Shown here piece after piece: positions 3,878 through 4,836 of a DNA stretch of 64,000 bases. A program made the translations under genes and the position numbers. Under the pieces are notes generated by a model. That model searched no databases. It was not told the origin of the DNA and was given only the letters and a program-made list of their open reading frames with translations. Numbering within the stretch: the first letter of the stretch is position 1; each line of letters starts with the position of its first letter. Origin of the DNA: a virus (taxonomy: Duplodnaviria > Heunggongvirae > Uroviricota > Caudoviricetes); the IMG/VR virus record IMGVR_UViG_3300010201_000017, one strand, 5' to 3'.

Positions 3878-4119
3878 TGATCAACTCCAGACCCTGCTAA
3901 TCAGGTCTTGACGATTCTCAACTCTCCACCCAATGTTACATTCATGATTACGCCGGCGAAAACCTTCGAAGCCCGCACGCCCTTTTATTGAGGGCGATCA
4001 AGGGCGTGCGTGTGCTCGCCCCGCTATTGCTGCGGCTCCCAAAGCCCCAAGCCATCATTCAATCTCAACATTCCGAAACGCCACGTCGATTGACGTGTGC
4101 ACACATTGGAGATTCTAAA

Positions 4120-4836
4120 ATGGCCACCGACCAAAAGAGACAGATCGAGATCAGAGCTGGAGAAGGCGGCGAGGATGCTCGCCAGTTCGTGGCCGAATTG
4201 GCGGCCGCGTATATGGCCACGGCGGGCCGGTTTGGCTGAAAGTCCCGTGCGTCTTCCACGCCGAATTTGCACACCGGACATCAGAGCATCGTCATCGATT
4301 TGATCGGACCTGATGTCGAGAAGCTCGACGGGGAATGCGGAACGGTCCGCATCCAGCGTATTCCAAGGACAGAGAGGCGAGGGCGTGTCCACACCAGCAC
4401 GGTGACGGTCGCAGTCATCAAGCCCAACTTGATCAACGTGGATGCCTATCGCAAGCGATCATCCGGCGATTTCGAGTTCGAGTGGTTCGGCGGAACCATC
4501 AAGGCTGGCGGCCAAAAGCACAACAAGACGGAGACATGCCTTCGTCTGCGACATAGGCCCACCGGGATCGTTCAGACCGCACAGACCCGCAGCCGGGAGA
4601 ACAGCACAAAGTTGGCTTTCGCAGCGATCCATCGAGCTCTAGATCAGGCTGAAGCCGACATCGCCCATGGACAGCTGAACGACGTCCGGAAAGAGCAAAT
4701 CGGGTCAGGGCAACGTGCTTCCGAAAGGAGACGGACGTTCCGTTTTCAGGAGGATCGCGTCGTCGATCACTTCAGCGGGAAAGCGGCTCGTGCGACCGTA
4801 CTGATGAAAGGAAGGATCGATCTGCTTTGGCGATAA
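4120..4836 (+). CDS. prfH: PrfH-like peptide chain release factor (RF domains 2-4 only) interrupted by an in-frame TGA at 4237-4239; possible pseudogene or recoded gene
   Basis: The N-terminal part reads MATDQKRQIEIRAGEGGEDARQFVAEL, which is RF-like. The downstream part, in the same frame, has no ATG and carries the universal release-factor motif GGQ in FGGTIKAGGQKHNKTETCLRLRHRPTGIVQTAQTRSRENS. A Shine-Dalgarno ggag lies upstream of 4120. The two ORFs (3988..4239 and 4267..4836) share one frame and are separated only by TGA. Confidence 0.6.

Follow-up and report, generated by a model that had tools for sequence, protein, structure and literature searches.

A release factor gene with one in-frame stop codon

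The window, by which we mean the whole stretch of 64,000 nucleotides that was analysed, carries on its plus strand an RF1-like open reading frame (4120-4836) made up of 39 codons, a TGA, and 198 further codons, which would give a protein of 238 aa if the TGA were read (Table 1). Direct sequence reading and the ORF listing show this TGA as the one internal stop in the frame 3988-4836, and the gene has no further stops or frameshifts. A sequence-only reading of the locus had described a release factor gene split by a single TGA, a read-through protein of about 238 aa with a GGQ motif, and a frame that continues on either side of the stop with no need for a frameshift, all of which the sequence bears out. 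It had also let the gene run from 3988, where the frame has a TTG; the true start is the ATG of codon 1, which has a GGAG motif upstream. The part of the gene 3' of the TGA was correctly described as having neither an ATG nor a Shine-Dalgarno sequence of its own: start-like codons in its frame begin with a TTG at 4267, ten codons on, and no Shine-Dalgarno-like motif was found for this TTG. The JGI annotation splits the gene and lists codons 1-39 as a separate ORF of 39 aa. A weak terminator-like hairpin lies 90 nt past the gene (the consensus scan found 3 such matches where 1.1 were expected). The neighbour on the opposite strand (2903-3877) encodes an ADP-ribosylglycohydrolase, as had been proposed, and the other ORFs within ~5 kb encode an exonuclease-like protein, a NinI-like phosphatase, and orphans.

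Table 1. Features of the RF1-like gene and its surroundings (positions are those of the window).
Feature	Position	Strand	Basis or remark
Shine-Dalgarno-like GGAG	4108..4111	+	Direct sequence reading; 8 nt spacing to ATG
ATG start of the RF1-like gene	4120..4122	+	Family N-terminus M-x-x-x-I-E-I-R-A-G-E-G-G aligns here
Codons 1-39, N-terminal segment of domain 2 (EIRAGEGGEDA helix region of RF1)	4120..4236	+	Pfam PCRF match from residue 8; alignment with T. maritima RF1 from residue 86
In-frame TGA, codon 40, proposed programmed read-through site	4237..4239	+	Context GGC TGA A
Codons 41-55, directly 3' of the UGA, candidate primary-sequence context element	4240..4284	+	Low synonymous variation in the family
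Codons 41-238, remainder of domain 2 and domains 3 and 4	4240..4833	+	Pfam PCRF and RF-1
P-R-T, residues 82-84, RF1-type PxT tripeptide (codon recognition)	4363..4371	+	RF1 alignments
GGQ, residues 130-132, peptidyl-tRNA hydrolysis site	4507..4515	+	Sequence and family conservation
TAA terminal stop	4834..4836	+	Direct sequence reading
Weak terminator-like hairpin with T-rich tail	4926..4947	+ (matches the - strand too)	Consensus match only

Judged by its sequence, the predicted protein is a class-I release factor of the RF1 type without domain 1. The read-through protein matches Pfam PCRF (profile positions 103-194 only) and RF-1, and covers positions 105-333 of the 347 in the RF1 HMM. It retains the RF1 motif Q-R-I-P-R-T-E-R-R-G-R-V-H-T-S, in which P82, E85, G88, R89, H91, and S93 vary little or not at all in the family alignment; G130 and G131 are invariant, and Q132 is present in at least 90% of members. 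Canonical RF1 (prfA) shares the PxT tripeptide, the G-R-[IV]-H-T-S motif, GGQ, and domains 2-4, but the window protein is without the ~100 N-terminal residues that form domain 1 and misses the equivalog thresholds of the RF1 models TIGR00019 and NF001859 (147-150 bits against cut-offs of 423 and 400); its gene family, moreover, lies on mobile elements and has an internal UGA. This UGA, codon 40, stands in place of a conserved Trp and aligns with the W of 'ERKGW' in the sequence of a solved RF1 structure.

The label PrfH-like, given to the protein when only the letters of the window were considered, does not fit. The PrfH model TIGR03072 scores 33.6 bits, below its cut-off of 166.65, where the RF1 models reach ~150 bits, and the best PDB match is T. 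maritima RF1 (E=2e-30), compared with E=4e-4 for PrfH (9mor). Members of the PrfH family have a divergent domain 2 without the PxT/SPF stop-codon tripeptide. PrfH (RF-H, the RtcB2 partner) is likewise a class-I release factor homologue that has no domain 1 and keeps GGQ, but its sequence similarity to the window protein is weak, and the window gene keeps the codon-reading motifs of RF1. The gene had also been called an orphan prfH without rtcB; no RtcB was found among the ORFs scanned within ~5 kb of it, which were part of the window's ORFs, and, since the protein is not PrfH-like, the absence of this partner is irrelevant.

Conservation of the TGA and selection on its two sides

The family comprises 82 distinct genes from IMG/VR viral contigs, metagenomes, and the megaplasmids of cultured Bosea and Rhizobium, with 41-100% aa identity and a locus GC content of 0.32-0.67. 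TGA occupies exactly the codon 40 position in 80 of them, which is conservation at one codon far beyond chance; the two exceptions (L084 and L167) have TGG. In the main set, 69 of 70 distinct sequences have the TGA, and it recurs in 11 further genes, among them the closest relatives and those of two isolate megaplasmids. Each closer relative recovered (74, 68, 63, 61, 53, and 49% identity) has it at the same codon, as do 69 more distant viral copies. The isolate carriers are the megaplasmids of Bosea sp. RAC05 and Rhizobium leguminosarum TP16, both finished genomes, and the carriers of the gene as a whole are large mobile elements, namely huge phage-like contigs and megaplasmids. The Bosea copy lies at 257665-258354 of pBSY19_1. 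A metagenome scan yielded seven loci. No close relative was found among the GenBank phages searched, where the best matches are 30-37% identical, and a scan of bacterial genome contigs returned canonical RF1 only among the matches listed. A distant form with several TGAs occurs in uncultured huge phages in GenBank (LR756501 and others); most other GenBank phage matches, few of which are so annotated, are taken to be ordinary full-length RF1 or RF2 genes.

Each gene contains one TGA, and the other conserved Trp codons, W122 and W237, are TGG in 69/70. A code-4 test set one TGA against 152 TGG codons in the family, with the TGAs all at one site. The terminal stops are TAA in 64 of the 70 genes and TGA in six, and TAG is not used.

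Both sides of the TGA are under purifying selection, with dN/dS of 0.096 upstream (codons 1-39, 23 disjoint family pairs) and 0.113 downstream. The spacer to the R.QR motif has seven different lengths, all of them in frame. The gene had initially been seen as either a fresh nonsense pseudogene or a recoding site. A sense codon in close relatives had been named as the sign of a simple pseudogene, and the relatives show the opposite. Because they keep the TGA (80/82) and selection is purifying on either side of it (dN/dS 0.10 and 0.11), recoding is supported and the pseudogene is rejected. A fresh nonsense mutation or a sequencing error in the window contig would need only a single G-to-A transition from TGG to TGA, and the split in the JGI annotation would fit it, but the same TGA recurs in samples that are independent of one another and in finished genomes of isolates, the gene is otherwise free of stops and frameshifts, and the range of identities excludes assembly artefacts of one sequence. 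We give this explanation next to no probability. With the same stop kept in some 80 diverse relatives, the TGA looks like a built-in read-through switch rather than the mark of a dead gene.

Two separate products, a 39-aa peptide and a C-terminal protein whose translation begins at an internal start or follows termination-reinitiation, would dispense with read-through. Gene callers do annotate an ORF of 38-40 aa and another of 150-190 aa in many contigs, and purifying selection acts on both parts. The called downstream starts, however, are at differing positions between members. No conserved restart codon 3' of the TGA was found in the 70 family genes: the earliest start-like codon in frame lies anywhere between +4 and +59 and is absent in 11/70, and an SD-like motif is present in 6/70. 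The true start, by comparison, is ATG in 69/70, with an SD-like 4-mer upstream in 62/70. The base before the TGA (-1) is C or T, so that no ATG or GTG overlaps the stop. In-frame conservation and alignment to RF1 extend over the codons between the TGA and the called starts, and a C-terminal product alone would be without the helix that bears the G-G-E codon-reading tip. A split gene has only a small probability in our assessment.

Sequence context, genetic code, and tRNAs around the UGA

The base after the family TGA (+4) is A in 57, G in 8, C in 5, and T in none of 70 genes (A 81%), against T in 81, C in 66, A in 64, and G in 44 of 255 genuine TGA terminators (+4U, 0/70 vs 81/255, Fisher p=1e-10), and pS falls to 0.17-0.29 at codons 41-55 of the family compared with 0.45-0.7 elsewhere, with a collapse of codon-choice entropy at codons 41-45 and 49-50 among 44 representatives with <80% identity, two signals that are partly confounded by amino-acid constraints and sequence relatedness. 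A U at +4 has been reported to lower read-through (PMC5289835). The suppressed synonymous variation makes codons 41-55 a candidate primary-sequence context element. Since the window sequence of these codons differs from the main-clade consensus, the signal holds for the family and is unproven for the window.

A SECIS-like or read-through-promoting hairpin, raised as a possibility when the locus was first described, was sought in four ways and did not appear: RNAalifold gave 0 pairs 3' of the UGA in 43 representatives, the window fold 3' of the UGA had z=-0.75 with no SECIS-like hairpin, a sliding MFE scan showed only mild structure that was not distinctive at the UGA, and an Rfam search returned two tRNAs only and no SECIS match. 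UGA is the selenocysteine codon, but these results and the homologous residue, which is Trp in RF1 and in the two TGG members and not Cys, leave selenocysteine insertion with a vanishingly small probability.

We also considered translational bypassing of the T4 gene 60 type, in which ribosomes would take off at the Gly codon that precedes the UGA and land on a matching Gly codon further on. A take-off-like GGY precedes the stop in 66/70 genes, one clade commonly has a GGC ten codons further on, and the stretch between the two shows constrained synonymous variation. Against this, 21/70 genes offer no in-frame match in the 25 codons that follow, and the window gene itself has no in-frame GGC within 25 codons past its GGC take-off codon. 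The stretch that would be skipped aligns to RF1, changes in length by whole codons only, and holds the conserved Trp position, and the -1 codon is Ala or Arg in Bosea and Rhizobium. Hopping was rejected for want of a consistent landing codon across the family, and we assign it a very slight probability.

TGA serves as a normal terminator in this neighbourhood, ending 24 of 59 window ORFs (41%) and 231 of 718 ORFs in the viral loci (32%). A crude comparison of coding density under codes 11, 4, and 15 revealed no code-4-specific gain, and the gain with TGA as sense was not above that with TAG as sense. The conserved window genes for sigma-70, CTP synthase, ThyA, the clamp loader, and a helicase are intact in code 11. 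A scan for further TGA-split window genes by codon-usage log-odds gave no usable signal, since the top scores went to antisense frames of real genes.

In the viral contigs the RF1-like gene lies among tRNA arrays, tmRNA, PTH2, and phosphatase or kinase genes, and in some related phages a tRNATrp(CCA) gene is directly beside it. The window clade is not adjacent to tRNA arrays, and no tRNATrp gene was found in the 64-kb window. No UCA anticodon occurs among the 601 neighbouring tRNAs. Among 12 tRNATrp(CCA), seven have an anticodon stem of <5 bp, and five have a 27:43 mismatch (Fisher p=0.006), a feature that raises UGA reading in E. coli (PMC13092985). A phage copy at 5907-5979 of locus L097 has the mismatch as C27·U43.

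These tRNAs bear on a code switch, by which the elements would reassign UGA to Trp genome-wide or late in infection, with the RF1-like gene as part of a 'code-change module' and its TGA as just one of many recoded codons. Some of the neighbouring phage tRNATrp(CCA), those with 4-bp anticodon stems, could read UGA (PMC13092985), TGA-recoded Jade phages carry RF1 together with a suppressor tRNA and TrpRS (10.1101/2021.08.26.457843), and the distant homologues with several in-frame TGAs come from low-GC huge phages. Most of the related contigs were read over short flanks of ±6-8 kb only, which leaves some probability to a stage-specific or partial suppression of TGA elsewhere in these genomes. 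A code switch nevertheless sits poorly with exactly one TGA per gene at a constant codon, the TGG at the other conserved Trp positions, the frequent use of TGA as a terminator, the missing code-4 density gain, the lack of UCA anticodons, and the window genes that are intact in code 11. Members also occur on the megaplasmids of Bosea and Rhizobium, for which we know of no non-standard genetic code. The Jade module itself is in the standard code (10.1101/2021.08.26.457843). On balance we regard a code switch as unlikely, and a fresh pseudogene, a genome-wide code 4, and selenocysteine as each very unlikely.

A proposed read-through gate and its relation to known systems

We consider it fairly probable that programmed UGA read-through, probably with insertion of Trp by near-cognate tRNATrp, gates production of this RF1-type factor. 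Most ribosomes would terminate at the codon 40 UGA through host RF2 and release a 39-aa peptide. Some would pass the UGA in frame, most likely by near-cognate decoding by tRNATrp(CCA), and decoding as Trp would restore the ancestral residue and yield the full 238-aa factor. With most ribosomes terminated by RF2 and a fraction reading through, the UGA would act as a translational gate: output of the factor would be low by default and would rise if RF2 became limiting or a UGA-reading tRNATrp abundant.

A textbook parallel is the +1 frameshift of prfB (RF2), another class-I release factor gene with an in-frame UGA near its start, which is codon 26 in E. coli prfB as against codon 40 in the window gene. 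The full-length product in both would need failed termination at a UGA, which would tie its synthesis to RF2 activity. The family differs from prfB in that there is no frame change, no CUU-U slippery site, and no internal Shine-Dalgarno sequence, the context being GGY UGA A. Autoregulation in the sense of prfB, which had been suggested for the locus, is doubtful: an RF1-type product is not expected to recognise UGA, which host RF2 does, so the gate cannot be simple prfB-like self-regulation, and feedback, if any, would amount to cross-regulation exerted by host RF2. No programmed frameshifting in prfA was reported from a survey of 12,753 genomes (PMC12421855).

A precedent for a virus-encoded release factor gene that needs internal UGA read-through is the class-I gene of Mimivirus and Megavirus (R726/mg280), in which a viral tRNATrp with a Hirsh-like D-arm has been proposed to insert Trp (PMC3521657). 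In our own reading of the sequences, the neighbouring phage tRNATrp genes also appear to have the U11-A24 pair. The Mimivirus factor, however, is of the eRF1/aRF1 type, belongs to a eukaryotic virus, also needs a frameshift, and can recognise the stop itself, whereas the family described here is of the bacterial RF1 type without domain 1, has a single UGA at a Trp codon, and is spread over many phage-like and plasmid lineages.

Low-frequency UGA reading by tRNATrp in a phage gene, as proposed here, is familiar from Q-beta (A1 protein). The leaky UGA of the Q-beta coat gene is read by host tRNATrp at low frequency, and competition between RF2 and tRNATrp sets the product ratio. Read-through in Q-beta adds a C-terminal extension to an already working protein, whereas the codon 40 UGA interrupts a single folded domain, so that only the read-through product could be a functional release factor. 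Reading of a leaky UGA as Trp is described in PMC7918605. The 'code-change module' of the Jade phages resembles our loci in linking a phage-borne RF1 to tRNA genes and UGA-to-Trp decoding, but that module is in the standard code and its phages have many recoded TGAs, whereas the RF1-like gene here holds the only TGA and its neighbours terminate with TGA (10.1101/2021.08.26.457843).

What the gate would be for can be stated only tentatively. The UGA may couple the domain-1-less RF1-type factor to the UGA-decoding state of the cell, for example by sensing a failure of RF2 termination and supplying a backup release or rescue factor with relaxed codon specificity, a possibility that we regard as rather doubtful.

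We found no published description of this UGA site in the literature searched, which did not cover subscription journals. Automatic annotation systematically splits the family gene, uses the wrong genetic code, or misses the gene, and the 'full-length' database proteins of the family came from code-4 gene calling. Recoding of a release factor gene is a textbook case of translational feedback, known in bacteria only for the +1 frameshift of RF2; in the present family, an RF1-lineage gene keeps an in-frame UGA in at least 80 diverged copies, which phage-like contigs and megaplasmids carry. Its occurrence in two cultured hosts, Bosea sp. RAC05 and R. leguminosarum TP16, makes direct testing possible. 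If read-through occurs, the codon 40 UGA would be a new class of recoding site for bacteria and phages and a natural reporter of how RF2 and tRNATrp balance at UGA, and it would point to mobile elements that manipulate termination or ribosome rescue. If the gate is in addition coupled to UGA decoding, the gene would be the first of the RF1 lineage with a programmed recoding switch, and mobile elements would have in it a widespread means of adjusting translation termination in their hosts.

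The release-factor gene and its element

The read-through protein scored about 150 bits with the NCBIfam RF1 models (HMM positions 105-333 of 347), 64 bits with the RF2 model, and 33.6 bits with the PrfH model, whose cut-off is 166.65. The top match among solved structures is RF1 of T. maritima (E=2e-30, chain residues 86-312), ahead of RF2 (3e-12) and PrfH (4e-4). The RF1-type decoding signature Q-R-I-P-R-T-E-R-R-G-R-V-H-T-S is kept, and HMMER aligns the UGA precisely with RF1's conserved Trp (ERKGW). Models, structures, and signature together identify the predicted protein as an RF1-type factor without domain 1, and not as PrfH-like, as a sequence-only reading had it.

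That reading described the DNA itself correctly: a single in-frame TGA, a 238-aa read-through product, and an opposite-strand ADP-ribosylglycohydrolase neighbour. Given its start codon, the gene comprises 39 codons, the UGA, and 198 codons; the product matches Pfam RF-1 and, over just the C-terminal half of its profile, PCRF, and has the GGQ motif at residues 130-132.

Features of the RF1-like gene, its neighbour, and tRNATrp(CCA) genes at homologous loci (L-numbers)
Feature	Coordinates	Strand	Remark
RF1-like frame	3988-4836	+	one internal stop; ends with TAA
Start ATG (biological start)	4120-4122	+	preceded by GGAG
GGAG ahead of start	4108-4111	+	
Internal stop TGA	4237-4239	+	sole in-frame stop inside the frame
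Terminal stop TAA	4834-4836	+	
ADP-ribosylglycohydrolase	2903-3877	-	divergent neighbour
C27·U43 tRNATrp(CCA)	L088 1480-1553		
C27·U43 tRNATrp(CCA)	L091 1203-1276		
C27·U43 tRNATrp(CCA)	L092 5715-5788		
C27·U43 tRNATrp(CCA)	L097 5907-5979		
C27·U43 tRNATrp(CCA)	L109 166-239		

The window, of uniform GC (~0.55), belongs to a 233,669-bp contig, and its genes are in part phage-like and in part plasmid-like (clamp loader, helicase, exonuclease, NinI-like phosphatase, sigma-70, CTP synthase, ThyA, TilS-like protein, AbiEii, IS transposase); we read its source as a huge phage or megaplasmid-like element. A perfect 34-bp palindrome without spacer (5014-5047, GAGTTATACTATTCTCG/CGAGAATAGTATAACTC) follows the RF1-like gene at a distance of about 180 nt and looks like an operator or recombination site. 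A PP-loop (TilS-like) ORF (27000-27707) lies directly upstream of a CAT-anticodon tRNA (27790-27865), and the two may be an element-encoded lysidine synthase and tRNA-Ile2 pair. A tRNA-Ile at 51241-51316 has the anticodon AAT, which is rare in bacteria, and the same kind occurs in a related viral locus (L151 1711-1783). A full-length sigma-70 gene (regions 1.1-4, 13026-14909) is followed by a GatB/YqeY-domain ORF (14997-15833), and locus L179 likewise has a YqeY-domain ORF close to its RF1-like gene; the rest of the element is rich in orphan genes. Two tandem paralogous small ORFs without assigned function occupy 6879-7415 and about 7492-7704 (containing LREFARSLEYVPAAERLRVAETMTIDEAL and LRQFAENLENIPEYSRLEIAEHHTVLEAM).

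Conservation of the UGA and selection on either side

A protein search returned 226 relatives, most of 150-190 aa with an N-terminus just past the UGA position, as expected if gene callers halted at an upstream stop. Scanning IMG/VR yielded 80 viral loci (42-52% identity across residues 6-237), all with one in-frame TGA, located at the Trp codon in 79 and two codons after a TGG in L084. De-duplication gave 70 distinct sequences, window included, with pairwise amino acid identities of 41-100% (median 61%) and locus GC of 0.32-0.63. A single in-frame TGA is present in every gene. At codon 40, 69 genes have TGA and one has TGG; the other conserved Trp codons, W122 and W237, are TGG in 69/70 and TGA in none. 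The terminal stop is TAA in 64, TGA in six, and TAG in none. Codon 40 is also TGA in every one of the window gene's closest relatives (74, 68, 63, 61, and 49% identity; GC 0.45-0.67). The genes of two "full-length" database proteins (P0009 and P0025) have TGA at the Trp codon too; the W there appears to be a product of code 4 gene calling. The same TGA occurs in family genes on finished megaplasmids of two cultured hosts, Bosea sp. RAC05 (53% identity) and Rhizobium leguminosarum TP16 (45%). One gene, at L167, is uninterrupted and has TGG instead. Altogether, TGA stands exactly at the Trp codon in 80 of 82 distinct genes, which settles in the affirmative whether relatives share the stop, a matter the sequence-only reading had raised. 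We regard it as very likely that the UGA is conserved and functional.

On the Bosea plasmid (pBSY19_1, L185 7995-8627), the PLSDB gene table, from which pseudogenes are left out, has a "hypothetical protein" on the opposite strand and lacks the RF1-like gene, apparently an annotation artefact of the internal TGA. Locus L179 holds a second RF1-like N-terminal fragment (2855-2977), which precedes the main copy by ~400 nt and ends in TGA at that codon as well (ASRFG#KGHR). Three copies on 178-kb contigs (L176-L178, e.g., L176 8001-8321) match residues 129-236 only, with stops throughout the upstream frame, and are probably decayed or truncated members.

We estimated dN/dS from 23 disjoint sequence pairs at 0.096 before the UGA (codons 1-39) and 0.113 after it (codon 41 to the end), and the spacer between the UGA and R.QR has seven lengths (26-37 codons), in frame every time. 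A fresh nonsense pseudogene, as once suggested for the window gene, is thus very unlikely, the more so with the TGA in nearly all family members. Two separate polypeptides would call for a restart after the UGA, and we found none conserved: the first in-frame ATG/GTG/TTG lies at +4 to +59 codons and is absent in 11/70 genes, and just 6/70 have an SD-like motif at these start-like codons, against an ATG in 69/70 and an SD-like motif in 62/70 at the true start. This arrangement is therefore unlikely, and the two parts are, judging from these sequence patterns, probably translated as one frame.

Decoding at codon 40

A changed genetic code (code 4) would make the UGA an ordinary Trp codon and is very unlikely: TGA ends 24/59 window ORFs (>=120 aa) and 231/718 in the viral loci, conserved window genes are intact under code 11, and crude coding density has no code-4-specific advantage. 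ARAGORN found no UCA anticodon among 601 tRNAs in 82 loci, and the window's tRNAs are tRNA-Met and tRNA-Ile(AAT) only. Distant domain-1-less RF1-like genes of 635-735-kb low-GC phages (L161-L164; LR745206, LR756501, LR756504, LR756502) contain one or two in-frame TGAs, usually elsewhere in the gene; TGA may truly be a sense codon in these genomes, and these homologues are a separate case. Selenocysteine insertion is also very unlikely, and the SECIS-like or read-through structure conceived of 3' of the TGA was not found: across 43 representatives, RNAalifold predicted no shared base pairs between -15 and +78, the fold of the window sequence does not stand out (z=-0.75), a sliding MFE scan gave only mild structure that also occurs away from the site, and Rfam has no match there. 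Hopping over the UGA is very unlikely too: 21/70 genes offer no take-off codon with a matching landing codon, and the supposed gap aligns to RF1.

The consensus around the stop is GG[C/T] UGA A. In the family, position +4 is A57/G8/C5/U0, whereas neighbouring ORFs that genuinely end in TGA have U81/C66/A64/G44 there (Fisher p=1e-10 for U); +4U is a reported strong-termination context (PMC5289835). Synonymous divergence is 0.17-0.29 across ~15 codons at the UGA and 3' of it versus 0.45-0.7 elsewhere, and among representatives below 80% identity the choice of codons 41-45 and 49-50 is almost fixed but unconstrained upstream. These patterns point to a possible context element in the primary sequence near the UGA, a signal partly confounded by sequence relatedness.

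tRNA arrays and a possible read-through gate

On viral contigs the RF1-like gene lies inside tRNA arrays, with at least one flanking tRNA in 66/80 loci and at least five in 47/80; in the window's own clade the arrays do not adjoin it. Nearly all tRNA and tmRNA genes (601/604) are co-oriented with it, the nearest at a median of 474 nt. Four loci (L083, L098, L112, L155; e.g., L098 7048-7478) have a tmRNA gene within ~2.5 kb, directly adjacent in three. Recurrent neighbours are DSP-type phosphatases (16 loci), metallophosphoesterases (11), AAA_33 kinases (6), DUF2828/DUF7788 (5), and PTH2 peptidyl-tRNA hydrolases (4), a set suggestive of translation and RNA maintenance. The anticodon stem is below 5 bp in 7/12 tRNATrp(CCA) versus 125/589 other tRNAs (p=0.006). 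Five tRNATrp(CCA) genes combine a C27·U43 mismatch (4-bp anticodon stem) with an apparent U11-A24 pair; in one clade (L088, L091, L092, L097) such a tRNA precedes the RF1-like gene at distances of ~20 nt (L097) to ~1 kb (L091). Because tRNATrp(CCA) with a disrupted 27:43 pair increases UGA read-through in E. coli (PMC13092985), these phage tRNAs are candidate natural UGA readers.

We infer that Trp read-through probably acts as a gate on the factor. Host RF2 would terminate most ribosomes at UGA-40, and near-cognate tRNATrp(CCA) would insert Trp in a fraction, yielding the complete factor; its level would stay low and follow the balance of RF2 and tRNATrp. Normal tRNATrp is established to read UGA as Trp in E. 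coli, Salmonella, and B. subtilis (summary in PMC7918605), and read-through is reported to vary with physiology (PMC10570021).

The Q-beta A1 read-through is among the nearest known devices, as are the three systems that follow. The prfB +1 frameshift shares the idea but differs in mechanism and is self-regulating, and the Mimivirus release-factor gene likewise needs UGA read-through but also a frameshift (PMC3521657). TGA-recoded Jade phages have an RF1 in their code-change module that is itself in standard code. No programmed frameshifting in prfA was reported across 12,753 genomes (PMC12421855), and the literature we searched does not describe this UGA site. An RF2-specific codon gating an RF1-type factor may serve to restrain a potentially harmful domain-1-less factor, to time its production via element-encoded tRNATrp, or to sense RF2 failure.
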